Positions 3,701 to 53,199 of a stretch of 64,000 bases of DNA are shown piece after piece (within the stretch, counting starts at the first letter, position 1; each line of letters begins with the position of its first letter). Made by a program: the position numbers and the translations under genes. The notes below the pieces were generated by a model that saw nothing but the letters and a program-made list of their open reading frames with translations, ran no database searches and was not told the DNA's origin. Source of the DNA: Amphiscolops sp. MND2022 (taxonomy: Eukaryota); contig OZ076411.1 of the NCBI GenBank assembly GCA_964187785.1, forward strand, positions 89,652,001-89,716,000. The letters run 5' to 3'.

Positions 3701-5983
3701 AAAATAACTTCTTTCCGGCGAGGTGTTGTGACGCGTCGGAGAAGGTGCTGACTGGGTGGTTGTTGTTCGTGTAGTCGCCAGCTATTAGATCGTTGATCTT
3801 TCTAAGGTCAACTAGCAGTCGGAGTCGTCCGTTTGGCTTTTGTTGTTCAGCGTATTTGCTTAACGGTAGTGTGGTTATGATGCCGTAGTAGTGCATCAGG
3901 GCTAGTTCCACTGTGAGGTCTCCTTTGAGGTTCACAGGACAGGGTAGGCTCTGCGTGTGAGCTGGTTGGTCGTTGTTTGGTGTCGGTTTTATTTTAAAGC
4001 CATGGTTGACGCCAATGTCCAGACGGTGGCGGGCAAATATGTCATGGTATTCGCGGAGTATGTTTTCGATGTCTTTCCGGTCTTGGTTCGTCCCACTTAA
4101 AATTCTCGAGGAAGTTTTGTCTGTCCTGTTGACTGGTTGTGGGGTTCAGTTTCTGGATTTCATCCAATTCTTCGATCTCCCTGAGGATCCTTCTTTAGAC
4201 AGGGGTGTGGATGGAGGGGTCACCTGGATTGTCTGGAGTTGGGAACCAAAATTAATGGATGTTTCGGGTTTTTCCGTAGTTTTCAGAAGTTCATTGACGT
4301 ATTCGAGAGCTTGTTCCAAATCGTCTTCGGTTAGGACTTTTAATGCTGCTGTGGATAAAGGTTTGACGTTTTCAGCTTTATTTGGTGCTCTGATGTGGAA
4401 ATCGGCCACCACGGTGTTCTTCTTGATGGTGAATGGGGTGGACGTTGTATTCGTGATGCGGATGGGTACTTTCATTTCGTGGACTGTGGATAGTGAGCTG
4501 GCAAGCACTATTGGTTTGTCTTCTGCATAGGCTGGCGTCAGGTGAGTGACGCCTGTGGTCTCTGCGATTGATTTGATATTGACCAGGGCTTCGACTGTGA
4601 TTCATTGGTCAGGGGCCAACGTTGTGTGGTTGAGGATGATCACTTTGTGCGGTTTTGCTGGTTGTTCATTGGATACAGGGTTTATTGCGTAGGTTAAGTG
4701 GGGGAAATGTAGGAGTCCAGGATGGCGCTATTGTTTTTTAGGAAAGTAAGGCCTAGGATGGGACCTGTGATCTTACTAGCTACAATGAACGTTTCCTTGA
4801 ATGCCCAATCGCCGATTTCAAACTGTACTTGGATTGTTTTAATTAGAGTTTCTATATCGTCATTTGCGACTTGCAGCTTGAAAGGTGGTGGATCGGCTTC
4901 CTGTAGGATGTTATTAGGACTCAGGTTTTTGAGTTTTTGGTTTTCGTTCTCGGGCATGCAGTTGACCAGGGCTCCCGTCCATTGGTGCAAATAGCATGCG
5001 TCTCTTCTGTTTGAGGGCGATTGCTGAGAATAGTGGTAGATAATGTTCACCTGTAGGATTATTTGTAATGGTGATATTTGCTAGTTGGTCTGCGTCTAGT
5101 TGTTGCAGCGAGAGTCGTCATCTTGTTGAGTATTTTCGAGTTTGGGGTCCCCAGTGGTATTGGGTTGTGGTTTTTGGTCAAATTCGCATGTCAGTGCCCG
5201 TTTGATGCGCCTTGTTTTTTGGGTTGGGGCAGCGATGGTTTGATTTGCTGGGGTGGTGCGGGAGTCCCCTGCTTTGGGTGCATCTGGTACGTTGGTGGTT
5301 GACATTTCTGGTTGTTTTGTCCTTTCCTTTATCGGGATTTCTGGACTTTGGGGAGATGAAGATGATGATGTCTATTGCTGCAAGGATTTCGTTTCTGTGT
5401 GACGGAGTTTTTGGAGGTAACTTATTCTCGGTCAGGTTGGAGATGTGCGGTTTGAGTATTGACCTGAGTGATATCGCAGGTGGTGTGACGATATCTTGTA
5501 TCTCCGGATCATGTTCCTCGGCTTGGTGTACGGGTGAATGACTATCGTTGTCGACATCTTTCCTCTTGGTGGTGTCGAGGTTCATGTTTGTTTTCTGAAC
5601 GAAGTCGTGGAAGTGTACATTGATCGTCTTTTTGAAGTTTAGAGTCACTTGGTCATATAAGTTAGGGTTGTGGTAAGGGTCACAACCGTAGTCTGGATCG
5701 TGTATGTAGGTGTCAGGAGTAGAACTGTGTGGGAGGGGCGTCTAGTTGAATTGTGCAGTTGGGGGTTTTCGTGATACCATTCTGGGTATTGCAGTTTGTC
5801 AAAGGTGGATTTATTGAACTTTATGAGGCACCTTATAAGCCATATCCACTGCCAGTCGGTAGATGGTTCACCGGAACACTCTGCGAACATTTCTAAATCG
5901 TGGTTCTTCGGGGGTTCAGATACGGTGTAGTATTTTTAATCAATGTAATCCTCGAAGCGAAGACGTGGCTTTAGAAGTTTTTT
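794..5983 (-). pseudogene. pol: pol of A1 (unknown N-terminal domain, aspartic protease, RT, RNase H, integrase), many stops and frameshifts
   Basis: Protease region ...GALVNC...GPILGLTFL; RT motifs LCKLDCSQAYH-like and QYVD; RNase H region; integrase LQMDLVP...ITDK; all collinear with element B pol. Confidence 0.9.
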
Positions 5984-7294: not shown

Positions 7295-8812
7295 TGTTCA
7301 AGAAGAATGGTTGGTCAAAATGATCAAATTTAATCACTATTTTAAGTGGATAAAACAGTTTCAAACTATTTCTAAGCAGGGTTATTTAGACAAAACAATA
7401 AACAATTCGAACCTTAATTATCAAAACGGAATGAAATAAGTATGTGAAAGATGATCAACAATTATCGAGAACAAAGTTTCAAAGCTTAGTGAATTACCTA
7501 ATAATTATAAACTCCACAAATTAGTAAGCACTTCGGAAAAATAATAACTTAATGGCTCGTTCCTCAACCCGCTTCAGGTATATATACTTTACGCTAGACA
7601 CGCGGGATAAATCCAGCGCGTGAATTCACACCCAGTTCAGCTGGGCGTCAATCCGAGGCAAGAAATTCCTAATTAGGTCCGCTTCCTCGGGATTCGGCTT
7701 TCAGCGTCGTCTTACTTTAAATGAATGCTGGGAATCAGCTTCCCGCCGAGTCTCAATTCCGCGTACTTTCTCTCTTCATTCCCCGCCAATTAAAGACGCC
7801 GAATCAAAATGGCACTAAAATTCATGAACCTAGCTATTGAAGGCGGGAAAGGAAAAGAAATTTACATTACAATTTAAAAATATTACAAAATAAATTAACA
7901 GCTCTGATTCTCTTCGTAATCAGTGAATTAGCACAGTAATCTACGATTCGAATGGAAACAAACAACAAAAAACTAGGACAAACGCCTGGTCACTAAACTT
8001 GACACTGAGTTGCCTAGTTAGCTTACCAGGTGTTTGACTCAATAATCGATGCGTGGGGGTTTACTTTAAGCGGAAAAGCTAAAATGGTATGTTACTGTTG
8101 AAAAACGGAGTGATGATTAAATTTTAAATACTGCTCGAGGTCTGTTGGAAAATCACCTGGTTCACCGTTCCTGGTGGAGAATTCAGTGTGTTGCATGGGC
8201 GGTTGCCTCAAATACAAATTAAACAAAATATCATAGTAGCACTCGATTATCATTTATTACCGTTTATCGAACTTTCCTTTGGTATTAGGCTTCTCTTATG
8301 TCACGTATTTCCATCTAGATTCAACTTAGCATCATTTAATAATAATGCACTAGAGTATGCAGGCAGTGCGACTGAGCGTGCGACTCAGCTTCAGTCGAAT
8401 GGTATGCTGCCTGGGACGCCGACTCAGGTTTGTTATTTAGCATATAAACTGCGCTCAATTATGATTGGTTAATAAGCACGGAATTATTTTGAGTTTACCA
8501 CTGCCGCTGAGGCAAAGTTCTAGTCGACGCGCTGGTCAGTTTAAATTTCGGTCAGAAGGCTGGTTGTTTGACTAAACAAATACTGCGCTCCCTATTATTA
8601 TTTTATTATTTAAGTATTTATGTATTTTAGGTACTGCACAGGGGTATTAATTATAAATTTACATATTTATTTAGTGATGGTTAAATTGTTTGTAAATTTC
8701 CGTTGCAGACTTTATGGTGACTTTCATGACCTGTTCTGGTCAGTTTCTTCGTTTCCTTCTTTTGGCGTTCCTCTTGGAGTTGGCGTCTCGCGACACCGCG
8801 GGGGTTGCGACA
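6952..8812 (-). repeat. 5' LTR of A1 (~1.86 kb, TG...CA)
   Basis: Alignable along its length with 51314-53199; ends ...AACA directly before the PBS. LTR extent is inferred from the PBS position and by analogy with element B, where both LTRs are present. Confidence 0.85.
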
Positions 8813-21986: not shown

Positions 21987-23811
21987 TGTCACAGCCCCAC
22001 CTGAGCTGTGAGTTCTGCAGCAGAGCCAACCCAGTCTTCGAACAATAAATTAGGAAATGGAAAAAGGAGAAATAAAAACAGAAAACCAGAAAAAAATCAG
22101 TCCAATCCATATAACCTGAACCAATGGCGCTAAACGATATGTGCAACATAATTGATTAAATAAATATATACTTACACATATATTAGTGTTTATACAATTA
22201 TACACAGACATATATTTACGTACTTACAGCATAACGGAGCTTTGGTGCAGTTAATAATAATAATATTACAGTGCTACAGTTAACAACATGTGAACCACAC
22301 CGCCTAACGAGCGACCAAACAATTTTATAGCGAGACTGCGGCCTGGCAACCGGCCTCAAATTCAGGCCGTGAAGCGCCGGCCTGGGACGCGGCCTGAGAT
22401 CAAACCACGCTGCTAAGCACAATGCGACTGAATTAAATGTGCTAATGAATACATGTAAACGTTTTAATAACCTCTGCAGTAACTAAATGACGATATGAGT
22501 GCAATTGTCCTAATAATAGACCTTTCATATTAAATGCACTAAATACGATGAACCGCGGCCTGGGACGCGGCCTGAAAATGATTATGTACCAAGTTAATTA
22601 TAAAAGTAGTAAACGTTGATGTTATTACGTAATTTTGTTCAGGAATAAACCTGGAGCTTATTAATTGTGTTCATGAATGATATTGTCGGTTAAATTTTAC
22701 ATATAATGATTTTTTTGCATGTAAATAGTGATTGATGAACTCCGCCTGGGCCCAGGATTTAGTTGTACACATTAATAACATGTATTTCCTATTCCCCGAA
22801 CTTGTTGCTGTTGAATTACGTTAACCATCGCCCAAGATGATGCTTTTCATAATATTCGTCACCAGTATTTATTCTTTTTCTCCTGAAGTAAATTTGTCCG
22901 TCCCGGACTGTGGCGTGGGGCTAATGCCTCGCAGCTCTCAGTCAAATCAGCCTTGTAAACATCGCATAAACTGTCCTACCTTCTCATTTACTTTCCTGTG
23001 TGCGATTTTGTTAGTCTAAAACTAGAACGATGCTACTTTTATTAATCTAATGAATATTCTTGTAAAATATTGACTGTCATTTTTTTCCAAATTCTCATAC
23101 TCAATTTGCAGTACTTTTGATGATTCATCACTTTCGCTTTCGCCAAGTTCAGCTTCGGCGTCTTGAAAGAGCGGGAAATTGGAGGCGAAAGGAAGCGGAG
23201 TCGCAACTCAGACAGGAAGTGGACGCGTGCTTTCTTCGGAAAGCATGAACAAGCTGAAGGTCTGAGTTCGACAAAGCGGAACTGAACTTCCGAATTCCCC
23301 GCTTGGGATGGACGCCGGACTGAACCGCATGTGAAATGTTGTTGTGTTTTCCCCGCTCTTCGGAGAGTGATAAGTATAAATATGTTGAAATTTGGAAGCC
23401 ATTATTAGTTGAAATTTTGTTTCGTTGCGAATTAATAACTTGCTTATTAAACGACAATTAACATTTTGCAATCCGCATTTTCTTTGTTCACCAGTCAGTT
23501 TGAATTATTTCTTAGGAAATTTCGAGATCAAATCCAAACAGTTTGCCTGAGCGAAGTTCTAAGAGGAAAGCCAGACGTGAATCAATCACGAAAAGTCGGT
23601 GAATAAACGGATTAAGGACACAGAAACCGGACAACGAGAAATACTAAAAATGATAGAAAATTTGTCTTCTAAAATAGTTTCGTTGGCTGACAAGACATCT
23701 TGCGATTTGAACCAGGGTTTAAATGGAGTAAACTCTGAAACTCTGAAAACGTAATACTAGAGAATAGACCCATAGGATTAAACGAATTCCAACAAGATGT
23801 CAGTCAACACA
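21987..23811 (+). repeat. 5' LTR of B (1825 bp)
   Basis: Direct repeat of 32553-34113; followed immediately by the PBS. Confidence 0.95.
23148..23324 (+). ncRNA. Predicted conserved cis-acting RNA structure in the LTR (copies at 33364-33540, 52351-52515 and minus-strand 7641-7805)
   Basis: Nested helices with G-U pairs and compensatory changes between families A and B; cUUCGg tetraloop at 23235-23238 and 33451-33454. Confidence 0.65.
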
Positions 23812-24926
23812 TGGTGACAGGAGTATCTCCCCAAACGGAAATACCGACCCGGTCATCAAGCTTGCCGCCTTCCCAACCAGAAATACCCGGACCATATAGT
23901 GGACAAATTGCTCGAATCGCTCCGCAATGTCACCCAACAGAACATCGGATTTCCCAGACTACCGAAGGCATTGTCAACAACTATGCCCACCTTCAACAGA
24001 CGAAATGACAAATTCGAGCATTTCGAAGACCTCTTCATGACAAGCCTCAAGGTATACCCTAACATCTCTGAGGAAGAACAAATCCATTACTTCCACTCCC
24101 TACTCAGGGATGAAGCACTCCAAACATATCGCAACATGACCGACACAAATCGTGCCAGCTTAGAGGACAGCATTGCCACATTCCGACGCAGATATGCACG
24201 CCCCCAATCCATCGCAACAGCCAGATGCAAATGGGAGCAACTCCACTTTGATCCCTCACGGCAAACATTCCCAGACTTTTTGGAACAAAACCAAAAATTG
24301 GCGCAAGAGGCATACGGAGAAAACGCCCCAAAATTCATAGAAACATCTTTCTATGCCAAAATGCCGATCCACTTAAAACGAGTCCTCAACCAAGCAAGGT
24401 TGGAAACAGAATCTTACGATTTGATGGTCCAACATTTGGAGAAGGAAATGGAATTAAACCGACTGTTGGCCCCCAACGAAACCAACATAACAGGTATACA
24501 TCAAATCGAAGTACAAGAAACACAACAAGCCCCAAACACTCCCAAACCGACAGGCCCATGCTACCGATGCGGACAACCTGGCCACATTGTCAAAAATTGT
24601 CGAAAAGTAGCCCGCGAAGCCCGCAATAGAGGCAACAGAGTACCTAACAAAATCGTCGACCCATGCGAACATGTGGCAAGAAGAGCCACTCAACGCAGAA
24701 TTGCTATTCAGGCGCAAACTGGGCAAACCGACCACAATGGTGGAAAACCCCAAAAACCACGCCCCCGAACAACATTCCGATAACCCCACAACAAGGTCAG
24801 TACGTAAAAGAAAACCCACAATTAACCCAACCCCAATATCCAAACCAGACAACCGGCCAAATGGGCTACCTACCCCCACCCGAATTGACAGCTCAATCTC
24901 ACGAACAAACCCATCTCAAAAACTAG
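23544..24926 (+). pseudogene. gag: gag of B (LTR-encoded start mutated to TTG; frameshifts; two CCHC knuckles)
   Basis: MPTFNRRNDKFEHFEDLF capsid-like region; CYRCGQPGHIVKNC and frameshifted CGKKSHSTQNC knuckles; ends ...HLKN* at 24926. Confidence 0.9.
23812..23824 (+). promoter_or_regulatory. Primer-binding site TGGTGACAGGAGT
   Basis: Begins exactly where the 5' LTR stops matching the 3' LTR. Confidence 0.9.
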
Positions 24927-27900
24927 TTTCGCCACATCTTCAGTTTGGGGAAATTGTCGAAACCCGACATTTCACAACATCGGAGCCCCCAATCACGTAC
25001 GATCACGAAGAACACAATAAGCGCTGTGAACAACCATCTCTCGACTGGCAACGAAGATGGCAAATTCACAAGCTCCACAAATACAACCGTCAAACTGCGA
25101 CCAAAAAAGACTACCCACACTGGTACATTGACAACCCGACCGACTACAATACCCCAAAACGACCCCTACCTGAAAGCACCTCCCCCGAAGCCTACATCCA
25201 TAACCCCGACTTCAACTGCGACCCGTACCACAATCCCCAACTTTATGACAGAGAAACATTAACCTTTAGACAGAGAGAGTGCACGCCATTTGAGGAATAC
25301 ATCAAGAAAACAGGAATGAACATCTCAACAGAGCCACGTCACAGACCAAAAACTGTCCAACCTGTACCAGATTACGACCAAGATGTAGAGCCTGTGACAG
25401 CAATATTAGTCGATAACCCGACTAACAGACCCAAGTCCATACTCAAAAATCAGGGATCTCAAATCACGGCCCCCCAATCGCCACCAAAAGGCCAACAAGT
25501 CAACCCTATCAGAGCCGGAATCTTACGATCCCCAACAATGGACGCGGCACCCGACTGCCACCAACACGAAAACACTACCTGCAGGACCACGACTGAAGCC
25601 GTGGACCTGGCCCAACCCACAATCAACAAGAAGACAACTCCCTCCAAACCAACAACAAGGAGGATCAAGAGGTCTCTACTTTTAGAGCCCCCCCCACCTC
25701 AATAGTCAGCCGCAAGATGAAGTTGAACTCACCCAACCCATCATGACTGACGCAACTAACATGCAGCCTGAATCACAATCAGGTGTTGCAAACAGCACAC
25801 CTCAACAGGACAGCTCCAGGTCCTACCCCTCAGAGCAGACTGCAGATTACCCGAGGCAAAACCATAGGGCCAGGGGAACCCCCAATCCCCTCTCCCAAAA
25901 CGACAGTCAGTCTGAAAACGAAGTCGAGGACCCTCGACCCATAGAGACTGCCACAACGAACATGCAATCTGGATCCCCCTCAGGTGCTGAAAACGACACA
26001 CCGCCACAGGACGAACCCCAGTCCTACCCTACGTCCCAGATTGCAAATTACCTCACATGGGAACCCGTGACCAACGAGCAATGCATCCCAATCTTCTCTC
26101 TCAGCAGTGACACTCAAGAAGAAGAAGAAAATGCCATTTGCTCCAATGGATTTCCAGGACTTAACCCTGGATGCCCTCATAGATTCCGGCGCCCTTGTTA
26201 ACTGCATTTCAGAAAAAGACTACAACAAAATCTTTCAAATGTCCCCCAAAGACATAGTTAAAAAATTGGAACCACCCCTTCAAACTTCAAGTCGCAAATG
26301 GCGACATCGAAACACCAACCAAGACAGTCATCCTCCGATTCGAAATAGGGGACTGGAACTTTAAAGAAACATTCATTGTTGCCAAACGACTGACAGGCCC
26401 AATACTCGGCCTCACTTTCCTCAAGAACAATAGTGCCATCTTGGATGTGAGTCAGGGCCTGCTCCACTTCCCTCACCTCACATATTCCATCGAAACTGAT
26501 GAGTATACCTGCAACCTAAAACTCTATAAAGTCCAAATAAAGAACCCACTTACCATACCTCCCGAGGCAACGCAGACAATCACTGGCTACACGGACATAT
26601 CATCCAGCATCGACACAACCGGTGTCATCAACCCAGCCACCAATCACTGTAGCGGTGACCCACTGGTGGTAGCCAGCTCAATATCAACAGCCTCAAGCCG
26701 TAAGATCGACGTCAGGGTGACCAACATCACCCCCACACCCTACACCATAAAAAAGAATTCGACGATAGCGGAGTTCAAAATTATGTCGCCAGAAGAAGCC
26801 AAAGAACTCAAACCAATCAACACAGCAGCACTCAAAGTGCTCACCGAAGATGATTCAGAAGACGCAATAGTCTATATCAATTAACTTCTAAAAACTTCTG
26901 ACAAAGCCTCCAACAACCAAAACTTTTGGTTCCCTACGCCAAATGACCCCGGGGACCCTATTACCCACACGCCGATCCAATGCCGAATATTGCGAGAAAT
27001 AAAAGAACTGGAAGACATTCAGAAACTAAACCCTACCAACAGCGACGAAGAAAGGGAGGCATTCCTCAAAAACTTCGAATGGGATGACACACAACTGTCA
27101 ACAGACGACCAAAAAGACATCGAAGAAACACTCATCGAGTTTAACGATATTTTTGCCAGGCATCCACTGGACATTGGAATCAACCACGATTTCAAAATTA
27201 AACTCACGCCGAAAACAGATGAACCAGTCTACTCACAGAGCTTGCCCTGTCCTAATAACCTAAAAGATGACTTGACAGTGGAACTGGCATTAATGCACTA
27301 CTTCGGGATCATAACAACCCTCCCATTCAGCAAACACGCCAGCCCGATCTTTGCCCTGCGCAAACCGAATGGCCGACTGCGCCTACTAGTGGACCTCAAA
27401 AAGATCAACAACTTGATCTCGGACGATTACATAAACAACAATCATCCGGTCAGCACACTAACCGATGCCGCGCAACACCTCGCTGGCAAGAAGTTGTTTT
27501 GCAAACTTGACTGCTCACAAGCGTACCACGTACTGCAGATGGCAGACCAGAAGTCCGTCCAACTCCTCGCCTTCAACTTCGCCAGCAGAACTTTCGCGTA
27601 CCTCAGACTGGCCCAAGGACTGAGCCGATCACTATCGTCCTTCTCAAGCTTCATGCGAGAATACCTGGACAAGGCAATAAAGGCGGACAAATGCGCCCAG
27701 TACGTAGATGACATTGGAATTGCCACAAACACTCCCGAAGAGTTGAAGAACAACTTGAGAGAGGTCTTCCAATGCATCCGCGCAGCAGGACTCCGGCTTA
27801 CAATGGCCAAATGTCAGTTCGGCGCCAATGAAGTCGAAATCCTTGGGCGAACAATCTCTCCATCGGGTGTGGCGCCCCAGACCCACAAAATACAGAAGTA

Positions 27901-30533
27901 CTTGCAAAAGCTCAAATTCCCCCGAACGAAGAAAGGACTTCAAAGATACATCGGATTTGTAAATTATTACAGAAACTATATCCCCCGATTATCAGAGAAG
28001 ATCGCTCCTTTCCACGAACTCATAAAAACTGACAAGCCAGCAAAAATCGACCAGGAACTTATATCCAACTTCGAAGCCATCAACAGGTCATTGGACAACG
28101 CGTGCGGACTTTGGCTCAAACAACCACTGCCAAACCGATAGTACGTCTTGATGACTGACGCCAACTTTAAAAACGCCGGATACGCCCTAATGACCGAAGA
28201 GGACCCAGAACAGAAGATCACTTCCACCAAGAAAACCTATGCCCCTGTAGCATTTGGATCCAAAACCTTCTCCCCATCACAATTGAAAATGTCAATTTAT
28301 GCCAAGGAGTTTTTGGCCATCTACTTTGCCTTCATGGAGTATAGCCATATCTTGTGGGGGTCCACCAAACCAATCATTGTCCTGACAGACAACAAGTCAG
28401 TCACGAGGTTTTTCCAAACCAAAATGATTCCACCCTCCCTGTGGAACGCCTGCGATTTTGTACTCCAATTTCACTTCAAATTCGCCCATGTACCGGGACG
28501 AATGAACACAGCGGCCGACTTCCTCTCCCGATTGGACATCAGCCCCTCAAAAAAGTCCTTCTCCAAATCAGAGAAGACATCCAAACAACACCCATCCAGG
28601 TGAATATCCAATCCTCCGACATTCACGAGGAAGACCAGTTCTACTTTTTACCAGAAGACGACTCCGAGATAGAAGAAGACATTTGGGAGCGAAAACAAAG
28701 AGCGCGCAAGAAAATATACAGCCCCAAGAACACCAAACTGACTCACCAGCCGCGACAAATGAGACAAACTCTCAAACGGAGAACTTACCATTAGTCTGCA
28801 ATAATATCCAAGACCCAGAACAAGAACAAAGGCGCCAACTTCACAGTGACACAAGTTTCCCACGTAGTCTAAGACCGCACCAGGACCAGGACCCCGTCCT
28901 CCGAAATCTCAAACTGAAAATGTTAAAGGAGCCATATGACACCCAACTTCTGAACGATGATCCCAGAGCAACCAAATACTTAACCCAAGAAGACAGAATC
29001 ACCATCAAAGATGGGCTACTGTACAGACAATACTTCGGAGACAATGGGAAAGTAAAATATCCACAGGTGCTACTCCCTCAACAGCTGGTCGACGAATTCA
29101 TCCAACACGAACATGGAAAGTATGGAAAACACCCAGGGATAGCCAAAACCATTCAACAATGCCGTGAAAAGTACTATTTTCTAGGACTCGCTGCAAAAAT
29201 AGCCAACCACATCTCACTCTGCAGAGAATGCGCCCAAACAAAGAGAACCCCAGACAGTTGCATCACACCACCCTTAATTGATATGTCACAACTAGCACTG
29301 GGACCTGAGGATGCGCTCCAAATGGACATAGTCCCATTTGACGACCCATCAGGTGGATACAATGCGGTTATTACAGCAATGGATATCTTCTCCCGATACC
29401 TCTTTGCATACAGTGTTACTAGAATTGATACCAGAACCGTCACCCGAGTCCTAATAGACATCATTACTCGACACAGCTACCTCCCCACAACCATCATCAC
29501 AGATAAAAGGTCCCAATTTGTAGCAGAATCCATGCAACAAATCACTACAGCTCTGGGAATCCAATTGAGGCATGCTACCACAAAACATGCCCAAACAATA
29601 GGTATCCTGGAACGAACTCACGCCTCACTGAAAGAGAGTCTCAAAATTGTGACAGGGGAAAGGCGTACAATGTGGCATCAATTTTTACCAAAGGCGGTAT
29701 TAAATTACAATACCTCATATCACACGTCCCTGGGCTGTGAGCCTAGCAGAGTGTTCCACGGAAGAGTCCCCTACAATGTAGTTGATCTGAAATACGGACT
29801 CAAAACAGAAAATCCTGCCCCAACCAACAGTGAAACTGCTGAAGGAGTGCTCCGACAGACAAAAGAAATCGTCGAGCAGACACAACAGTCACTGATGCAG
29901 GCCTACGTTCGCCACAAACTCTCTTACGACAAGAAGGCATCCGCCAACCCCTTGGTAGTAAACGACTACTGCTATGCATTGCATCCAAAGGCGCATAGCC
30001 AATCGACAAAACTGCCGTTCAGAGACTACCTTTGGACGGGACCATATATCGTGGTCAAGACTCTACCAAACAACAATTATTTAGTTCGAAAACTTCAGAC
30101 AAATCTCACACAGATCCTACATAGAATCAGGCTCAGACCATTTAAGAGTACACACAAACTGCCTGACATCTCCACACCCCTCAAGGAGTTCCAGCAAGAT
30201 AACGAAGTTATCATACAACATGACGACCTATACGCCTTAGCGTGGCAAGAGCTTTACCAAAAAGACCCTACCCATCTCGGAAACAGCCCGTCACCCGAAC
30301 CCAAATTGACACCGCCAAACACAGAAACAGCCGACGAAACCACCCACCCCGATCCATTGCCCGAACCTGAAAACATTAGTAATCACCCGGAAGCCCAGGC
30401 AGATGATCTAACCCTAGACATAGCCGATGAACACCCGCACCCACCTCTAAATCCCCCCGGAAATCAAAGTACAATCTTCGACAAAACCCGACCTCAATTT
30501 GGAAGCCGGATTTTGCCCACTACAACCCTATAA
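24917..30533 (+). pseudogene. pol: pol of B: unknown N-terminal domain, protease, RT, RNase H, integrase
   Basis: ALIDSGALVNC protease; 383-aa RT ORF with CKLDCSQAY and QYVDD; RNase H (MTDA, KEFLAI, TDNKS); 616-aa ORF with H2C2, D-D-E residues (QMD, ITD, ERTH) and GPY motif; a few stops and frameshifts. Confidence 0.95.
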
Positions 30534-31792: not shown

Positions 31793-32050
31793 AATCAATT
31801 CTCTGAAAATAACAAACCATGAAACATAAAAAGAAGATGTGGCGTAAAATCAATGGAAATATCAATACTAGAAGTTATCGACTATATAAGGAGAGTTGTT
31901 CAGTCTGCCAGCTGAACAATTCAAAAAGCTCAACACAAATGGTGTGAACAAATTTTCAGGACGCGGATTAGTCAGTTATATTCCTAATCAACTGACAATC
32001 AGCTTGCTAATCAAACAAAATGTACAATTCCAACTCAAGCGATCAAACGA

Positions 32051-32614
32051 ATGAAGACGTCTTTATTCTCGAACGAGATCAGCCAGTACAACCAAGACAG
32101 GCCCAATACACCGCCGTCTAATTATAATATTATCAACCCAACGCAGCTTACTATTACTTATGAAAGATTTAAAACGGAAGATCTATACGTCGTCCTTGTC
32201 CATGAACAACTGCTTGAGAATGCAATTAACGCTGAAAACGAACAAGGAGTAATACGAAGATTTACTACAGACAATCCGGTTATACCAGATGATGAATTCG
32301 TGAGCTCAATCAGACGGTCCAATCAAGCAGACCAATACAGACCTGATTATATTTTCGACAGCCCTATGAGCTCGATCAGTGAGACCGACAGCAGCTCAGA
32401 AGGCTACTGGTCAGGCAGCAGTTGGGAAAGCAGCTCTTCATGGCGATCATACGATTCAATGAGAGACGACCTCACTACGCTATTTGATACACCGATACGA
32501 TCCATTTCCCAATTTCTTGTTCCCGAGGGAACAGGGCAAAGAAGCCGAGGACTGTCACAGCCCCACCTGAGCCGTGAGTTCTGCAGCAGAGACAACCCAG
32601 TCTTCGAAGAATAA
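32051..32614 (+). CDS. Uninterrupted 187-aa sense accessory ORF of B that reads through the PPT into the 3' LTR; product unknown (acidic, Ser-rich)
   Basis: ATG to TAA without lesions; last ~20 codons lie inside the LTR. Confidence 0.55.
   Translation: MKTSLFSNEISQYNQDRPNTPPSNYNIINPTQLTITYERFKTEDLYVVLVHEQLLENAINAENEQGVIRRFTTDNPVIPDDEFVSSIRRSNQADQYRPDYIFDSPMSSISETDSSSEGYWSGSSWESSSSWRSYDSMRDDLTTLFDTPIRSISQFLVPEGTGQRSRGLSQPHLSREFCSRDNPVFEE
32527..32552 (+). promoter_or_regulatory. PPT-like purine-rich tract before the 3' LTR of B
   Basis: GGGAACAGGGCAAAGAAGCCGAGGAC directly 5' of TGTCACAG; interrupted by pyrimidines. Confidence 0.55.
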
Positions 32615-34113
32615 TTAGGAAATGGAAAAAGGAGAAATGAAAGCAGAAAACCAGAAAACAATCAGTCCAATCCATATAACCTGAAACAATGGCGCTAACC
32701 GATATGTGCAACATAATTGATTAAATAAATATATACATACATATATATTGGTAATTATACAATTATACACAGACATATATTTACGTACTTACAGCATAAC
32801 GGAGCTTTGGTGCAGTTAATAATAATAATATTACAGTGCTACAGTTAACAACTGGAGCTTATTAATTGTGTTCATGAATGATATTGTCGGTTAAATATTA
32901 CATATAATGTTTTTTTTGCATGTAAATAGTGATTAATTAATAAACAAGCCTGGACCTCAGCCTGGGCCCAGGATTTAGTTGTACACATTAATAACATGTA
33001 TTTCCTATTCCCCGAACTTGTTGCTGTTGAATTACGTTAACCATCGCCCAAGATGATGTTTTTCATAATATTCGTCACCAGTATTTATTCTTTTTCTCCC
33101 GAAGTAAATTTGTCCGTCCCGGACTGTGGCCTGGGGCTAATGCCTCGCAGTTCTCAGTCAAATCAGCCTTGTAAACATCGCATAAACTGTCCTACCTACT
33201 CATTTACTTTCCTGTGTGCGATTTTGTTAGTCTAAAACTAGAACGATGCTACTTTTTTTAATCTAAAGAATATTTTTGTAAAATATTGACTGTCATTTTT
33301 TTCCAAATTCTCATACTCAATTTGCAGTACTTTTGATGATTCATCACTTTCGCTTTCGCCAAGTTCAGCTCCGGCGTCTTGAAAGAGCGGGAAATTGGAG
33401 GCGAAGGGAAGCGGAGTCGCAACTCAGACAGGAAGTGGACGCGTGCTTTCTTCGGAAAGCATGAACAAGCTGAAGGTCTGAGTTCGACAAAGCGGAACTG
33501 AACTTCCGGTTTCCCCGCTTGGGATGGACGCCGGACTGAACGGCATGTGAAATGTTGTTGAGTTTTCCCCGCTCTTCGGAGAGTGAAAAGTATAAATATG
33601 TTGAAATTTGGAAGCCATTTTTAGTTGAAATTTTGTTTCGTTGCGAATTAATAACTTGCTAAGTAAACGACAATTAACATTTTGCAATCCGCATTTTCTG
33701 TGTTCACCAGTCAGTTTAAAATATTTTTTAGGAAATTTTGAGATCAAATATAAACAGTATGCCTGAGCGAAGTTCTAAGAGGAAAGCCAGACGTGAATCA
33801 ATCACTAGTTCGGTAGATGAGCCAGAGTGTTCGAGCATGAAGACGGGAAACGTCCCCAGCATTTCCGACAAAGACTTTGCTGATTTGACAGGAAAAAATC
33901 GTAAGTCGGTGAATAAACGGATTAAGGACACAGAAACCGGACAACGAGAAATACTAAAAGTGATAGAAAATTTGTCTTCTAAAATAGTTTCGTTGGCTGA
34001 CAAGACATCTTGCGATTTGAACCAGGATTTAAATGGAGTAAACTCTGAAAACGTAATACTAGAGAATAGACCCATAGGATTAAACGAATTCCAACAAGAT
34101 GTCAGTCAACACA
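32553..34113 (+). repeat. 3' LTR of B (1561 bp)
   Basis: Direct repeat of 21987-23811; preceded by a purine-rich tract; followed by the TSD. Confidence 0.95.
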
Positions 34114-35455: not shown

Positions 35456-38400
35456 TACGTAATTAGAGAAAGTGTACCGTAGTCACTTACTGCATTTAGA
35501 TCACTGCGCGTAACGCCAAATCACAAAATGTAACAAGCAGCTAAACACGTAACGCGTATTTGAAATAATAACACGTTTTTGTTGGCTGTTAATGGAACGA
35601 GCAAGATAGATCTTGCTAGTTCGTTGTACAATGTCGCAAACGCTATTCGACAATCGTAAAATGTATAGATATATTTTTAAAAGTGTCATTTTATTTCAGA
35701 GGATCATTGTATGAAATAAATGTTTTATTGACATTCTTTCTACAAATAGAGGCTTCTATATGATCCTCTATTCTCAGTAATTGGACGAGCAACTTGTGCA
35801 ATCTACAAGATCCTGCAAACAAGGAATCTCTACCCCTTTCCCGTTAGCTCGTTCCGTTGCATCTTATTCCCATCAAAGCCTGAACGGAATGGGAACTACA
35901 TTTGTCTCGCTCATGAATAACACCTTGTAGTATCACGTGCTTCAAACGTATTCTTTTTTATGTCCTTAAAGTATCACGTGTCGTGTACTTCAAACCCGTT
36001 CACATATCTATCTTGGTAGAATCAGGTCTCGTTCGGTCCAAGCAGAAACTCAACGAGTGAACGTGTCCACCAGCCATGGTGGTGCTCAGTTGCCCCATTG
36101 AAGGGTGTACCTACGCCACGGGGGATATTGAAGCGACTCGAGCTATCACACTTTTCACGGTGCACGGGTATTCACTTGCCCCCGACGCCTGTCAACAGGC
36201 CAAACCCGAAAAATTGTCTCGCCCAAAAGTGTCTAAAGAAAGCACGAGTGAAGACTGGGAATACTTCATCACCAGGTGGGACGCCAACAAGAAAGTCACA
36301 CGCACAGTTGACCACGATGCCACCTTAAAGCTCCTCGAATGTTGTGAAAAACTGTCTACGCAAGGATCTCCACCGCTCCCACTCAAACATCGCCATGGCA
36401 ACCGAGAAAGATGCTCTGGCTGCAATCAAGACTCTAGCCGTGAAGGCTGAGAACGCCATGGTGAGCAGGATGATCCTCTAGACAGGGACACGGGACAGAG
36501 AGGAGGGTGTTAGCAGTTTTGCCGCTCGCCTACGAGGTCAAGCTAAGGTCTGCAAGTTTCCGAAAAACTGCCCTCATAACCCAATAGAAGCAGTCAATTA
36601 CACCGACGACATGGTCCGCGACGCTCTCATTAGAGGACTTGGCGACAGCGACATCCTGTAAGATGTACTGGGACATAACGACCAGGACATGACCCTTGAG
36701 CAAACGATCAAGTTTATAGAGGCCAAGGAAGCTGGTAAACGATCACAAGCAACTCTCAAGAACCCGAGTGCTGCGACAGTATCCTCGTATAAACAGGCGG
36801 ACCAAGACCAAAACGTAGTCAAATGCCGAAATTGTGGAAGACCAGGCCATGATGATGGCCGCGAGACACAGGCTAGGAAGGAGAAGTGCAAAGCCTGGGA
36901 CAAAATTGGATCCCAAAAGGATCGGTGGAAAAGATAAACACAAAAGGACCGTTGGAAACACAACGAAGTATGTGGATGAATCCAACACTGTCTTTCACAA
37001 ATTGTGCAACATATCGGTAGCCTGCACGGTCACCTCTCATAAACCCGGTCAACGGGCGGTCGTCCTTGACCACCACATTCTCGACGTCAAAAACGGCTGG
37101 ATCACGAGACGGTCGCCGCCCCAACCAACAGTTTTTGTCATAGCCCGCGCTCACACAAAAGACTATGGGAAGCTGGGGTACCGCCTTCACAAAAGGACAC
37201 GCCAGATATCACAACATGACAGCTGATACTGGTTGTCAATCTGTTTTAGTTGGGATCAAAATCATCCACAGACTGGGTTTCAAAAAATCGGACCTCATAC
37301 CCGTGAAAACAAAAATGTCGGCGGTGAATCGTGACGTCATCCCAATTTTAGGGGCTATTATCCAACGACTGTCCCGAAAATCGGGGTCTGGCAAAGTAAT
37401 AGAGACTGCACAAAAATATGCTATGTGATTGACGTTATAGTAGGTGCATACTTTAGTCAGGAAGCCTCTACAACACTGGGAATCATCCCAAGCGACTTCC
37501 CGCGAATCGGATCAGCCACTCAACAACCCATGTCAGTCAGTTCAGCTGCAGCAAGCCCACGCGACGAGGAGTGCGACTGCTCCTGCCCCATTCGCACCCA
37601 GCCGCCATCATAACCAACTGCATTACCATTCCCAGCAACTTTCGCAAATCGAGCCGCTCTACAGAATTGGATACTAGACAGATACAGATCCAGCACTTTC
37701 AACACTTGCGAATGCCAAACACTCACACTGAGTCCCGATCGCAGTCCACAAACCCATTGCAGTCCCTCTACACTGGCAACAGGAAGTGAAGGCGTCTATC
37801 GACAGAGATTCCAAACTCGGGGTTCTGGAGGCTGTCCCAGTTGGAGAAACAGTTACCTGGTGCCATCAAACGGTCACGGCTCGGAAAAAAACGGCAAGCC
37901 ACGACGCACAGTGGACATGCTGTCCGTGAAACACATCACACTCAATCCCCGTATCACCAGGCGACGCTGGTACCTTCAGGGACCACGAAGACGATTACCG
38001 ATGCTTGGAACGGGTGTCACAGTGTGCCAATCCGAGAAGAAGATCGCCACCTCACCAATTTCATCACGCCATGGGGTCGGAACCGATACAAAACTTGTCC
38101 ACAGGGCTACGCTAGTTCACAGGACGGTTACACCAGAAAATTCGACGAGATGGTCAATGACTTCCCCAACAGAAGCAAATGCATCAAAGACACATGCTTA
38201 TGGGCAGACACTCTCGAAGAGAGTTTCTTTCAACCGTGTCGCTGGCTAGACGTTGGCGGTCGACTCGGAATTGTTCAGAATCCCAAAAACATTGTATTTG
38301 GCTCCGACGCGGTGGAAGTTGCTGGTTTCGTCATCACTCCGACCGTCATCTCTCTGGCGCCTTTCCGCGAGCTTCTCAAGCCATCGTCAACGTTCTATTG

Positions 38401-39251
38401 GGATGATCAGCTGCAACAAGTTTTTGAGCAATCCAAGGCTGCTATATTGAACAAAATCACCGAGGGTGTCTGGATAATCGACTCCAAACGCGTCACATGT
38501 TTGCCACAGATTGGTCCAAGAAAAGCATCGGTTTCTGGCTCTTGCAGAAGTACTGCACCTGTGAGGTCATCACTCCTATCTGTTGCTCAACGGGATGGAA
38601 AATAGTGTTCGCTAGTAGCAGGTTCCCACACCCAGCAGAATCAAGAAAAGCTCCTATTGAAGGAGAAGAATTGGCTGTTGTTTATGGATTGGAGTCCGGC
38701 CGTCACTTCGTACTCGGTTGCGACAACTTAGTGGTAGCTACTGACCACAAGCCGCTACTCGGGGTTCTCAACAACCGACACCTCGGCGATTTCAAGAATG
38801 AAAGACTATTGTCACTCAAGGAGAAGACGCTACCATACCGGTTCTCTATAATTCATATACCCGGCGAGAAACAAAAGGCGACGGATGCAAACTCAAGGAA
38901 ACCCACTGGTAATGCTTCCTTAGGATAGTGATTTCGAGGAGTCGGACTCCATCGCTTGTATTGAACCGCGTCTCCGCGATTCTGAGGCCACCATGACGTG
39001 TGAACCCGACACATCAATTGATCCGGAAGAAAAGCTTGCCGTTGCTGCGGCCACCAATCTCGGCGACATTCGCGCCGTTACATGGGCCGAGGTCCGAGAA
39101 CACACCCTACGCGATGACGATCTTCAAAATCCCAAAAAAAAGATCGAAGACGGTTTCCAGGGCATTACCTCATGATTGGATCTTGCCTCGGGTATACGAG
39201 ACTTCTTCCAATTCAAGGATGGACTCAGCACAGTGGATGGAGTGATTGTAT

Positions 39252-39464
39252 CCCGGCCAAAAGACACTAGATTCAGCCCAGGAAGTCATGCAGGTGACAC
39301 CTTGATGAGCAGAATGCAGTGTGCCTTTGATTAGTGCTCTCAGTGGTGATGGGATATGTTATCCCATCACCACTGAGAGCACTAATCATAGGCACACTGC
39401 ATTCTGCTCATCAAGGTGTCACCTGCATGACTTCCTGGGCTGAATCTAGTGTCTTTTGGCCGGG
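39252..39464. repeat. Palindrome with 105-bp arms, 3-nt loop and one mismatch
   Basis: 39252-39356 is the reverse complement of 39360-39464; the right arm is the integrase coding strand. Confidence 0.95.
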
Positions 39465-40266
39465 CATTACGCCGGCTATTGCCAACTTGAGAGCTCGGTG
39501 CTGGTCATGCAACGAGCGTGCGCCTAGTCAACCTCATGGCCCTTCGCTCGCGGCTCAGGCACCAGTTTACTCCTTCCAGTGCACCTGTGCGGATTACTTC
39601 GAGGACAAGTGCTGCAATTACATGGGGGTTGTGGACCGCTACTCTGGTTGGCCGATTGTGCAGCAATCACGAGTTGGTTCTTTGGGTCTTGTTAATTGCC
39701 TTCGCGAAGTTTTCGTCACATACGGCATTGCAGACGAAGTATCGTCAGATGGCGGACCTGAATTCACAGCCGAGGCGACACAACAACTGCTGTCAAACTG
39801 GTGTGTCCATCACCGCCTCTCATCTGTTGCGCTTACCCATTCCAACGGTCGCGCCGAGCTCGGGGTCGAGACCTGCAAGCGCATGTTCATGGACAACACA
39901 GGTCCGAACGGCGAGATCAACCTCGACAAATTTCAAAGAGGCATGCTTCGATACCGCAACACCCCTGACCGCGATGCCGGTTTGTCCCCAGCACAAATGA
40001 TCTCTGGAAGAACCATAAAGGACTTCATCCCCATTCTGCCTGGTTCAAATTGACCTCACAACAACTGGATAGAAACATGACGGGCCAGGAAAGAAGCAAT
40101 GCGTGCTAGAAATGTCTGAAATGCTGAACGCCTCACCGAACGCACGGTACGGTTACAACCCCTTAAAGTCGGCATCTTGGTCTTTATCCAGAACCAGACT
40201 GGTAACCATCCACTGCGATGGGATCGAACCGGCTTAGTGATCGAGGTGAAACAGTTCGACCAGTAC

Positions 40267-40479
40267 CATTGCAGTGCATAGGCAAGCTATTTTGTGCTTG
40301 TCGTGGAATCCGGGACACGAAAATTCCGCTGCTTGTCCGTGGAATGCTTGTTTGTGGAATCCGGGACTTACGACGTAATTTGCCAATTTTGCACAGTTAA
40401 AGGTATGGTCGTGGAATCCGAGGTATTGAAAGCACAAATTGCGCTTTGAGCAAATTAAGCTTGCCTATGCACTCTAATG
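40267..40479. mobile_element. ~210-bp MITE-like insertion in the integrase C-terminus
   Basis: 15-bp TIR core GTGCATAGGCAAGCT (40274-88) / AGCTTGCCTATGCAC (40458-72); interrupts FDQY|AVRVDG; internal GTGGAATCCG repeats. Confidence 0.75.
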
Positions 40480-43400
40480 ACGCCGTCAGAGTTGATGGAT
40501 CGGACAGTTACTCTCAGGAATCGGAAATTTCTACGGAATTTCGACAAATTCCTTGTAGACCACATACTTGGTACAACCCACACCATCCAACTTTTGAAAA
40601 CTCCCAACAACGCCGCGATTCTGTCTCCGGTGAATCAACGAACTAACCCAGAACAGGCAAAAGACCCAGCTACAGCAAGGCCGCAAACACCGCAACCGGA
40701 AACAAAGCGTCAAGTTCTGACCGGTGCACAGTTTACACAACGCCTCTCAGAGACGCCGGCAGTTACAATTAAAGCCCCACTCAAGTTCAAGTGCCCTCCA
40801 AATGAGTCCCTCGGAGATGAGAACGAGCCTTTGCTGGACACAGATATCATGCCCCACATCCTTTCTGCTGAATCACCCGACAAGGAGTCCAAATGTTGTG
40901 ATAAACTTAATGCACCGGGTCACCCAACGAGTCACCCCTAGCAACGACTCCCCCGGATAACCCACAGACTCCCCCCAGACGGTCCCAGAGAGAAAAGCGT
41001 CCCCATGTGAGACTTTGGGACTATATTCGATTCTGACAGTCCTCCCCGATATACTACGACCAGTTCGGACTGGAGGATGGGGGGGATGTACAATGTCGCA
41101 AACTCTATAATAACAGATCGTAAAATGTATAGATATATTTTTAAAAGTGTCATTATATTTCACAGGATCATTGTATGAAATACATGATTTATTGACACTG
41201 TTTCTACAAATAGAGGTTTCTACACAAAATAGATCTTGCTAGTTCGTTGCGACATATGCATCGTGTAATTTCACTCTGAGAACTCTATTTTGTTTAGATG
41301 GAGTTCAATGTATTTTGAATAAAGTTAGCATACTTTTTTTTTATTTGCGCAATTGTCGAATTCGGAGACGTTCAAGCTCTCAATAAAGTGATGACGAGCA
41401 TCATAGTTGTGATTCCTTATTCACAGACCAGCATTTACTATGCGATTTGGTGTTTCTTAAGATGAAGTAGTCCTTCACTTGCCGATCTTTCCAAATTTCG
41501 CTCTGCATCTTGTAGCGTATCGACACCATGCATTGGATTTGCTGACGAGCCCCCCTTTGGTACGAGCTACATTTTTTCGATCATGACTTCAAAATTAACA
41601 TTTTGACTTCTCTGTTCAGAAATTCGAAAACTTTGTCTGAATGAACTTCGAACATTGCGTCGCGTGCTTACCGCTTTGATTGAAAAGAAACTTCTGACGG
41701 GGAAAATTGTAACTTCGACCAGCGTGGTGAGCAAACAACATAAAAATTGGCCAAATTGGCAGGTACGTAAAATCAGTCGAGAAGACGTACAAGAAGACCG
41801 CCACCCCCAGAGTGCCTCGTCACTCACCCGTGAACATCAAAACACCTCTAAAACCTATCCAGACGTACGTTGACAACCGGAAAAACAGGAAAACAGACAA
41901 AAACCCAAGGATGTATATGTCTGAAGTACAATTGAAATTAGATCCAAAATGGAACTGATTTTATATTTTGGTTTTATTGCAGGTCGTATGAGTGAGAATA
42001 TGTTTTGATCAACCAAACGTTTAAGGTGTTCTTCGATGAAATGCTAGTGAAGAGCGATGGATGAGATGTGCTCTGTGTTGTTCAAATTTTCATGCAGAAG
42101 AGTAAATAGTTGTAGTTTCCGTTTTGTTCAGTGTAATTCCGTTTTGTTTCCGAAATGGTTAATATAAATGGAGGACATAAGCTAATAGAAGAATTGAATT
42201 GAAAACATTGATTAATGACGAAAAGTGTCAGAATTAGCATATTTTAGTAAGAAATTGGACATCAATTTTACTATAAAATATATCCTTTTTGTCTAATGCT
42301 AGGAATATTTGGCTGATAAACATCATCATGTCAGAGGGAGAATATTGGATTAGGCTGGTTAGTGCGAAATTGGAGAAGGACAAAATGTTATTCACTTATA
42401 ATCCTTGACGTATCAGTAAATAACACGTGTTGAGATTTACAAAACTTCAAAATTTTGCAATTTGAAAAGCCACAAATGGGTACCTAGGAAGATTCAGAGT
42501 GAGAGGTGCGAAAAAGTTTGACAAGTATGGATGAAAATTGTACAACAGAGGAGTGAGGATAAGGTTATAAGATGATTTTGGAAAAATCGTAGATTCAAAT
42601 TTACTAATTTTTTTCCAAGAAACAGGTAATATGAACATTAGAAATTGTGAGTGTTTGAATGTGGAAGGAGAGTGAAAGGATTCCATAAACAATGGGTCAG
42701 TTGGGTAGACAAAAGCATTAATGCAAACAGTGGGATTTACAGTTTGGAGTACATATGCAGAGGGTGCATTTTGAGTAACGTTTCGAGAAGGTTCAGACGA
42801 GATATGGAGGTAAATAGTTGAGGTTATGTTTAGGTTAAGCATTTTGCTTCTCCTCGATTATAGTAGTTGTGGTGGCAAACTTTTTGTATTGTTTTTTGAT
42901 TTCAACAGAGGAGACTTTTGCTACAATAAATTTGAGTTGAGCAAGAGAATAGTGTTCATGTACACGAGAGGTATAGATAGAACGAGCATAGTCATAGAGA
43001 GGAGTTTCGCTTGATATTGGGAAGAAATGATTAACATGATTGGGAATATTTGAAGGCAAGAGGAAATCCTCATCAAGATTAAGGGCTTCTTCTGGGACAA
43101 AAGGAGGACGGGTTGCATTCTGATAAGGACTGAGAATATACTACTAATCAACAGGATCATAGCTTCGTATTGTAGTAATCAGAGTGGTGATAATGATAAG
43201 AAGAAGATGTGAATTTATTTATCATTTCAGAAAACAATTTTTGGGGTTGGTTTTCTTTGAGAAGAAGTTTGTTAGTTCTGTCATGAATCATTTTTTTGTT
43301 TGCCAGAGTCGAGTTAAATGTTTCAATGGTTTGGACGCAACAGAGTGATCATAATGGCGATCCGCAGAGATAGGAAAAATGTAGGAAGTAGGAGTCGTAG

Positions 43401-51313: not shown

Positions 51314-53199
51314 TGTCGCGACCACCGCGGTGTCGCGAGACTTCAATTCCAAGAGGAACGCCAAAAAAAGGAAACGAAGAAATTGACCAGAACAGGTCAG
51401 AAAAGTCACCATAAAACCTGAAAAGGAAACTAACAAACTATTTTACCATCACTAAGTAAATATGTAAATATATAAGTAATACCCCAGTGCAGTACCTAAA
51501 ATACATGAATATTTATTTATTTAAATAATAATAAGGAGCGCAGTATTTGTTTAGTCAAACAACCAGCGTGCTGACCGAAATTTAATCCGATCAGCGCATC
51601 GACTAGAAGTTTCCCTCAGCGGCAGTAGTAAACTCAAACTAACTCTGTGCTTATTAACCAATCGGAATTGAGCGCAGTTGATACTAAATAACAAACCTGA
51701 GTCCACGTCCCAGGCAGCATACCAGTCGACTGAAGCTGAGTCGCACGCTCAGTCGCACTGCCTGCATACTCTAGTACATTAATATTGAACGATGCTAAGT
51801 CGAATATAGATGGAAATATGTGACCTAAGAAAAGCCTAATACCAAAGGAAAGCCCGATAAACGGTAACAAATGATAATTGAGTGCTACTATGAATTTTGT
51901 TTAATTTGTAATTGAGACAACCGCCCAGGCAACACACTGAATTTTCCACTAGGAACGTTGGACCGGGTGATTTTCAACAAACCTCGATTTAATATTTAAT
52001 CACCTCGTTTCATAATCATCACTCCGTTTGTTAACAATGACTTACCATTCAACTTGTCCCGCTTATATGAAACCCCCCATACATCGTTTATTGAGTCAAA
52101 CACCTGGTAAGCTAACCAGGCGACTCATGTCAAGTTTAATGACCAAGTGTCCTGGTACTTTGTTGCTTGTTTCCTTTCGAATCATATATTAACGGTGCTA
52201 ATTAACTGATTGCGAAGAGAGTCAGGGCTGTTAATTTTTTGTAAAACTTTTACTGATTTTGTTGAATCAACCCGAGAATTTGTCGAAGTAAAATTCATTT
52301 CCTTTTCCCGCCTTCAGTAGCTAGGTTCATGAATTTGAGTGCCAACTTTGGTTCGCCGTCTTGAATTCGCGGGGAATGAAGAAGGAAAGTACGCGGACGT
52401 GAGACTCGGCAGGAAGTTGATTCCCAGTTTTTCTTTAAAGTAAGATGACGCTGAAAGCCGAGTCCCGAGGAAGCGGACCTAATTTGGAATTCGTTGCCTC
52501 GGATTGACGCCGAGCAGAACAAGGTGTGAATTCACGCGCAGGATTTATCCCGCGTGTCTAGCGCAAAGTACATACAAGCGAAGCGGGTTAAGGAAACAGT
52601 CATTAATTATCAATTTTCCTAATATCTTACTGCTTTGAGAAGTTTACTTTCGATAAGAAACTCACCAAATCTCGAAACTTTAATCTTAATAGTTGTTGAT
52701 CATGTTTCGCATACTTACTTCTTTCCGTTGTGATATTCAAAGTTTGAATTTAATATCGTTTGGTAAAAATAACCCTGATTGGAAATAGTTTGAAACTGTT
52801 TTATTCATTTAAAATAACGGCTAAATTGGATCATATGGACCAACCATTCTTCTTGAATAATGCCTGAAAAGTCTCAGAAAAAACTCAGAAGTGATCAGAG
52901 CAGTAGCCAAGAAAACGCCGAAATATCCAGTCAAGTCTCTGACGAAAATACATGCCTCACCGAAAAGGATGTAGCAGACATCTCGAATAAGATCAAAAAT
53001 CGATTGTCTAAAAGGTTAAGAGATACTGAATTTACCCAGAGAGAGATCTTAAGATTGATTGAAAACCTCACGTCGAAGGTAGAAAGCCTCTCGAACCCAA
53101 CCACAGAACAGTCTGGTCAGGCATTACGTTTTGAACTAGATTCAGGACCAGTCGAAGACTCAGAAAATAACGACATTTCTAGGAACCTCAGTTCCAACA
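51314..53199 (+). repeat. 5' LTR of A2 (~1.89 kb)
   Basis: TGTCGCG...TCCAACA followed by the PBS; homologous to 6952-8812. Confidence 0.85.

Follow-up and report, generated by a model that had tools for sequence, protein, structure and literature searches.

The nuclear exit and stability of unspliced LTR-retrotransposon RNA are far less well mapped than those of retroviral RNA. On the retroviral side, the relevant part of PMC7551171 describes the CTE as a long stem-loop of 150-175 nt with two internal loops that acts on intron-containing RNA. The passages on HTLV-1 RxRE and MMTV RmRE in PMC7551171 and PMC12789967 describe structured RNAs that lie in or overlap the 3' LTR and are carried on all sense transcripts of viruses with extra ORFs. 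These elements are multi-branched and bind a virus-encoded Arg-rich protein. Among retrotransposons, the ENE of plant and fungal LTR elements such as Evade is, according to PMC12501189, a 3'-UTR stem-loop raising RNA stability. The bipartite PBS of Ty3, as outlined in PMC5371799, includes a U3 RNA segment of a Ty3/gypsy element that acts from the 3' end. The abstract of PMC11963269 presents Retand of plants as a gypsy element with a long region between pol and the 3' LTR that carries antisense ORFs; an LTR rod is not mentioned in that abstract.

The DNA analysed here, called the window, is a 64-kb stretch (G000:C3:89652001-89716000) of a 1.07-Gb eukaryotic genome. It carries a Ty3/gypsy element, B, of a type about 15 kb long with LTRs of 1.8-1.9 kb, recognized by its TG...CA LTR ends, its PBS, its gag and the pol order RT-RNase H-integrase (Table 1). 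The flanks of B, TTAAC and TTAGC, agree at four of five positions and are likely a target-site duplication. Six longer natural copies measure about 15.4 kb with LTRs of 1.9 kb; in these, the segment that follows pol, up to the 3' LTR, holds a large antisense ORF together with short ones of that orientation and the sense ORF3. The copy in the window is about 3 kb shorter and has no match to the antisense protein. The PBS pattern, complementary to the 3' end of tRNA-Leu, has 353 matches in the genome and none for the control, and ARAGORN identified Leu-CAG and Leu-AAG in two of the three tRNA loci given to it. Most of the 100 matches listed of these 353 fall in a dense tandem array of tRNA-Leu genes at G000:C11:5996526-6039072.

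The gag frame of B starts inside the LTR and reads through the PBS. Sister families were obtained via divergent RT proteins and are designated by letters of our own (C to H); all those obtained share the tRNA-Leu PBS and the start of gag within the LTR. In all family groups examined, gag starts 270-580 nt before the LTR end and reads through the tRNA-Leu PBS (for instance at 23543-23824 of the window and in loci L105, L113, L121, L190 and L193). Elsewhere in the window, a third, unrelated gypsy element with 134-nt LTRs occupies 35625-41222 and carries a 213-nt palindromic insert at 39252-39464, and long AT-rich, G-skewed tracts with few long ORFs extend over 42000-50000 and 62000-64000.

Table 1. 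Features of element B and of related elements (window coordinates unless a locus is named).
Feature	Position	Strand	Basis or remark
5' LTR of B (TG...CA), including gag start and first part of gag	21987..23811	+	self-BLAST, ends read
Rod (P1-P4)	23147..23325	+	fold and alignment; predicted U3, about -260 to -80 from predicted start site
P1, 5' strand	23147..23162	+	pairs with 23311-23325; 97.8% of cells paired, core almost invariant
P2, 5' strand	23170..23185	+	pairs with 23287-23303; 88% paired, 3/10 pairs two-sided
AAGCGGA	23193..23199	+	repeated at 23274-23280, on the opposite strand of the large purine-rich internal loop (pseudo-twofold)
P3, 5' strand	23200..23213	+	pairs with 23260-23272; best covariation, 3/5 inner pairs two-sided
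CAGGAAGT loop motif	23213..23220	+	related word kept in family C
P4 apical hairpin	23226..23247	+	UUCG loop 23235-23238 (B-specific); 84.5% paired, 4/8 pairs two-sided
TATA box TATAAATA	23375..23382	+	start site predicted at ~23401-23407
Start position of gag within 5' LTR of B	23543..23545	+	TTG here; ATG at 33759 in 3' LTR
PBS of B, complementary to host tRNA-Leu 3' end	23812..23824	+	pattern matches and ARAGORN
Fragmented gag (with a zinc knuckle) and pol (with RT, RNase H and integrase) of B	23818..30533	+	Pfam
Sense ORF3 of B, extending into 3' LTR	31988..32614	+	no Pfam family
3' LTR of B, purine-rich tract before it	32553..34113	+	~95% identity to 5' LTR
Rod copy, 3' LTR of B	33363..33541	+	z -8.9; copy predicted present in RNA
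Rod homologue, 5' LTR of A2	~52346..52520	+	170 bits; A2 in model training set
Rod homologue, LTR of A1	~7635..7810	-	163 bits; A1 in model training set
Large antisense ORF	L103:661-3132; window 59836-61684	-	clade-wide

The segment of interest, here termed the rod, had been singled out in an earlier note as the one block shared by the otherwise dissimilar LTRs of the A and B families. Sensitive alignment of whole LTRs bears this out: they align only at the gag start and in a region running from the rod through the TATA box, the rod being, together with the TATA region, the sole non-coding stretch that aligns between them. Its distance from the gag start, put at about 220-350 nt, is 219 nt in B and about 340 nt in A2. 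Helix P1 and the apical UGCUUUC-UUCG-GAAAGCA hairpin are as described, and so is P3, formed by AACUCAGAC and GUCUGAGUU in B and by GACUCGGC and GCCGAGUC in A2; P2 is present too, with a G.G mismatch in A2. What does not hold is the proposal that a cUUCGg loop is kept across LTR families, this loop occurring in 45 of 53 B-type copies and none of 53 A-type copies (18 of the 124 copies are unclassified). The block holds a genuine LTR structure, absent from existing annotation and backed by moderately good evidence, that has no conserved tetraloop. A second small hairpin stands between rod and TATA box both in A (52524-52552, with a GC-rich stem) and in B (23354-23369, with a UUCG word); by eye, the two are non-homologous.

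Several parts of the rod can also be read as DNA words. The 5' strand of P1 doubles as a TTCA-N5/6-GCGT motif, an inverted copy of which lies at the rod's other end. The 5' strand of P2 includes a word that we take to be E2F-like, and the CAGGAAGT loop motif is, read as DNA, presumably ETS-like.

Folding of the 5' LTR block of B gave a nested sense-strand structure of -90.7 kcal/mol (z -6.9, with none of 200 shuffles as good), in line with the fold first proposed; the antisense strand reached -74.4 kcal/mol (z -5.3). The A copies of the window are weak when folded alone (z -2.4 for A2 and -0.4 for A1), and the apical helix is broken in the subfamily of A2. For a broader view, 28 A/B-type representatives were hand-picked from 160 blocks, two of them added from elsewhere; the set used for folding has L165 where the alignment used for pair counts has A2. 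Sense z is -3 or lower in 21 of the 28, the sense fold is better than the antisense fold in 24, and folding the alignment of A/B representatives gave -29.0 for the sense strand versus -18.2 for the antisense strand. Sliding windows (180 nt, step 90) yielded z values near -6 elsewhere in the LTRs of A, E and F as well, so that a low z is by itself not special. In a finer scan, z lay between -4.5 and -8.4 in all four A/B LTRs, sense z never fell below -2.8 in C, D, E and H, and values from -3.8 to -6.0 were found in F.

All evidence on structure comes from one genome, in which about 125 copies were examined out of roughly 1700 first-look candidates; scores were obtained for 40 of the 846 B-like candidates found by genome search and for 40 of the 867 A-like ones. 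In a structure-blind MAFFT alignment of 28 copies, 92.1% of cells are paired versus 39-53% when partners are slid. Two-sided changes affect 11 of the 39 pairs (one in P1, three in P2, three in P3 and four in P4), mostly on the single split between A and B. This number of pairs is not above that of shuffles (mean 9.3; 93 of 500), while two-sided cells number 72 versus 36 in shuffles that ignore relatedness (none of 500 as good). RNAalifold, one of the checks that the earlier note had suggested, independently recovered P1, P2 and the inner part of P3 and missed P4.

An out-of-sample test was made by predicting pairs from the 3' LTR of B alone and reading them in A-type copies. Five such copies keep 48-50 of the 61-63 pairs, compared to 37-39 upon random placement (p 0.0008-0.005), and show 8-9 two-sided changes versus about 4 expected (p 0.006-0.018). 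Other B references weaken the two-sided test (p 0.017-0.37), and under a stricter null the B-to-A comparisons give p values of 0.03-0.19. Predicted pairs are broken in 13-15 cases in young A copies and in 20-22 cases in A1 and A2 of the window, for which the outcome of the test is weaker as well.

Pair types were counted in the 102 copies, from 134 hits, that passed a TATA filter. Among types shared by at least three copies, G-U outnumbers A-C by 20 to 6, an excess that speaks for sense-strand selection but is partly circular, the helices having been drawn on that strand to begin with; rare types comprise 27 G-U and 22 A-C, matching neutral decay. Some positions are less orderly: 11 of 60 B copies have A.C at one pair of P3, and P4 of one A subfamily carries fixed mismatches. 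The C/U difference between the two LTRs of B, which had been offered as evidence of pairing, is of little weight: C-G is found at that pair in 2 of 60 B copies. The P1 core, GGCGUC/GACGCC, is invariant at five of six pairs in 28 of 28 rows and at the sixth in 27, and being nearly invariant it gives no evidence of structure. Altogether, these data support a sense-strand RNA structure under selection in A and B; judged from the alignments, selection at the RNA level on P2 and P3 within the A/B clade is probable, not proven.

The transcription signals bear on where in the RNA such a structure would be found. The TATA box lies 50 nt downstream of the rod; TATAAATA, TATATATA or TATTTATA is present at fixed spacing past the rod in at least 91 of 124 copies, and in each of 16 representatives, drawn from seven family groups, a TATA box picked by eye precedes the gag start by 117-274 nt. 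With a conserved TATA box downstream of it, the rod is likely upstream of the start site and so outside the leader. We infer that the TATA box sets the start site and that only the rod copy of the 3' LTR is transcribed. Counted from the predicted start, the rod probably spans about -260 to -80 and so falls in U3. Genomic and ORF3 RNA alike would then carry it in the 3' UTR, with no copy at the 5' end.

This probable arrangement, which the earlier note had itself named as counting against its proposal, argues against a 5'-leader element, be it a packaging signal, TAR-like or IRES-like. Such an element would need a main start upstream of 23147; the rod does lie 220-340 nt before the gag start and is structured on the sense strand, and a strict initiator pattern follows the predicted TATA box in just 7 of the 16 representatives. 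Nevertheless, a conserved TATA box separates rod and gag in all family groups, and no further non-coding LTR block upstream of the rod is common to A and B. The leader placement is probably wrong, and we regard a leader function as quite improbable.

A more serious contender is one in which the rod works as DNA only, as a promoter-proximal enhancer made of inverted pairs of transcription factor sites (the TTCA-N5/6-GCGT ends and the E2F-like and ETS-like words), the fold being a by-product of site symmetry tidied by template-switch homogenisation of inverted repeats. The sister families lend it weight. Families C and D keep the inverted TTCA-N5-GCGT end motif and the words we take to be ETS-like, and C keeps the order of the inner words too. 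Of 11 A/B/C/D representatives, 8 have the inverted TTCA-N5/6-GCGT pair and all 11 have ETS-like words, against none of five from E, F and H in either case; genome-wide, the end-motif pattern has 3027 matches versus one for the reversed control, some B copies matching on both strands. Retention of the motifs in C is not accompanied by a fold (z -0.9 to +1.4 in 11 of 11). In family D, the end motif has one more copy in tandem, the order of some motifs is changed, and the fold is weak and shorter (sense z -2.1 to +0.9 in 16; one of 36 pairs two-sided). The A/B covariance model did not detect C and D (best score 11 bits, E 0.16), and the A/B profile and covariance model gave no significant match in the other families.

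Motif and covariance-model searches of families E, F and H returned neither the end and ETS-like motifs nor the rod. Family F has an inverted repeat of its own just before the TATA box (z to -6.0), which also suits an explanation in terms of DNA alone. The 320 nt preceding the TATA box in E and F contain 2-3 sites that we assume to be MEF2-like, in four of four LTRs scored (L121, L123, L192, L193), versus at most 0.1 expected, which is what an enhancer would show; H has none. The rod, 50-230 nt before the TATA box, falls in the zone of these clusters. The use of presumably MEF2-like words in E/F and of ETS/E2F-like words in A-D may mean that sister families target different cell types.

Three observations weigh against an enhancer acting solely as DNA. 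Changes in P3 and P4 that alter sequence and keep pairing are unneeded for binding sites; the preference of shared variants for G-U over A-C is predicted neither by double-stranded DNA nor by repeat homogenisation; and, on the sense strand, purines dominate on either side of the loops, which an inverted duplication that had decayed would not show. We consider this explanation rather unlikely, though it deserves real weight; selection, we infer, acts on RNA and not on DNA. The families thus reveal two layers: sequence words that are older, are kept in C and D as well, and are most readily understood as promoter-proximal DNA sites; and the rod, evident in A/B alone.

An RNA acting at the 3' end could also serve reverse transcription or packaging. 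A U3 segment of Ty3 pairs with the primer tRNA, according to PMC5371799, and the loop word of the rod looks like the complement of the 3' end of tRNA-Leu: of all LTR sites, it matches these 22 nt best in three of three C and two of two P0004-type representatives, with a shuffle p of 0-0.05 in C. The loci in which the loop word of family C resembles this complement are L108 (oriented 4950-4975), L105 and L116. The complementarity is nonetheless weak and not kept across families: it is significant in C and B2, whereas B gives p 0.72, four A-type representatives give p 0.10-0.45, and D is not significant either. Moreover, the matched part of tRNA-Leu is already occupied by the PBS, and a packaging signal in U3 would fail to separate genomic from ORF3 RNA. 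A role of this kind appears improbable.

Aid to 3'-end formation, through use of the poly(A) site, or a function as small-RNA precursor as in foamy-virus LTRs is very unlikely in our estimate. The rod does sit shortly upstream of the predicted R, with U/GU-rich tracts past the predicted start, and HTLV RxRE has been proposed, in the portion of the literature on it considered here, to bridge the poly(A) signal and site. Yet no AATAAA or ATTAAA is conserved beside the rod in the eight LTRs scanned. As to small RNAs, a B-box-like word and a T4 run are weakly present in B and absent in A by eye, the large internal loops are unlike those of a miRNA precursor, and Rfam has no match on the block.

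Searches of the databases placed the rod in no known class. Rfam gave no match at gathering score in the 64-kb window and six weak matches in six loci (E 1.3-4.7, far below gathering score), none over the rod; no ribozyme, SECIS or other Rfam family matched the block. An origin from a tRNA, SINE or 7SL insert, which the earlier note had named as grounds for dismissing its proposal, was not found by Rfam, and ARAGORN reported no tRNA in L003 and L047. K-turn and SECIS motifs were rejected by eye, a tandem G.A context being seen in A but not at the matching register in B. Pattern scans of viral contigs returned four stretches, by eye of unrelated sequence, and a metagenome scan yielded 18 contigs that carry pol but, at 1.1-3.4 kb, do not extend as far as the LTR. 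A literature search, most subscription papers being outside its scope, retrieved no description of the element or the rod, which does not establish absence from print.

As to the systems described at the outset, the rod resembles the MPMV/SRV CTE in its size and shape: 180 nt, with internal loops and a word that recurs on the two strands of one of them, against a rod of 150-175 nt with internal loops. It differs in lying inside an LTR, in a gypsy retrotransposon, and a link to NXF1 would be by analogy. The word AAGACA, given for the gamma-CTE of MLV, is absent from the A/B loops in 28 rows; B has CAGACA, its AGAC lying inside helix P3. Like RxRE and RmRE, the rod would be a structured RNA of the 3' LTR in an element with extra ORFs; unlike these multi-branched elements, it has no evident Arg-rich partner of the Rev/Rex/Rem type, no Arg-rich stretch being found in ORF3 and the extra ORFs being present in families devoid of the rod. 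Identity with an ENE was rejected, as the ENE needs U-rich internal loops, and 67-81% of the unpaired rod bases are purines. Since those defining features of CTEs and response elements that sequence can reveal were not found here, we file the rod as neither.

The large antisense ORF between pol and the 3' LTR reaches 770-890 aa where unbroken, and is possibly of greater interest than the rod itself. By eye, its product starts with Cys/His spacing like that of a BED finger, and Atlas leads for it are hAT/FAM200/ZBED5-like clusters at 0.87-0.89; these features suggest a captured DNA-transposase gene. The candidate assignment differs from Retand, for which TRP28 is reported. A tblastn search located the antisense protein at 14 of 18 loci, with A, C, D, E and F all represented, together with one of two H copies; among the loci without it, three are flanking stretches of divergent LTR copies. 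No viral relative of it was found. Pfam has nothing significant for the antisense ORFs or ORF3, and an Atlas search with one ORF3 gave no usable match. ORF3 is acidic and poorly conserved, and an Arg-rich motif is absent in eight of eight copies (no 12 residues hold more than 3-4 Arg). The sense ORF3 faces a short antisense ORF head to head across some 220-300 nt (L103:4634-4936, L104:4417-4640), and the word TTCAGTCTGCCAGCTGAA is common to A and B2 in this interval, which could possibly be an internal bidirectional promoter.

The earlier note had further suggested that accessory proteins might target the structure. The antisense ORF and ORF3 are likewise seen in rod-less families (C, E, F and H); their presence does not track that of the rod, leaving a pair of the Rev/RRE type, and the rod as target of an accessory protein, unsupported. 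In a bolder reading, U3 of these 15-kb gypsy elements would hold a dual-coded module, DNA enhancer and RRE/CTE-like RNA rod in one, as an independently reached version of the complex-retrovirus design, with the antisense BED/hAT-like protein or ORF3, expressed from an internal promoter, as its element-encoded regulator. We think this improbable.

The explanation we favour, tentatively, is a protein-docking rod in the 3' UTR that would promote RNA export or stability and is overlaid on promoter-proximal DNA motifs. The copy in the 3' LTR would be transcribed and, within the 3' UTR of the element RNA, adopt the rod fold. A host factor that binds or exports RNA would dock on its purine-rich internal loops, among them the central one with AAGCGGA on each strand, and would then export or stabilise the element RNA; in the 5' LTR, the same bases would serve as promoter-proximal DNA sites. 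Such dual use would explain the invariance of P1 and of the loop words. The role in export or stability is suggested by likeness to the CTE and to 3'-LTR response elements.

Should the DNA-only alternative be true, the block would be an ordinary enhancer with inverted sites. The case also illustrates a trap: a structured LTR block near gag need not belong to the leader. Given how little is mapped of the fate of unspliced retrotransposon RNA, a U3 rod that is present in some sister families and absent in others offers a natural comparison, in a small fragment open to testing.
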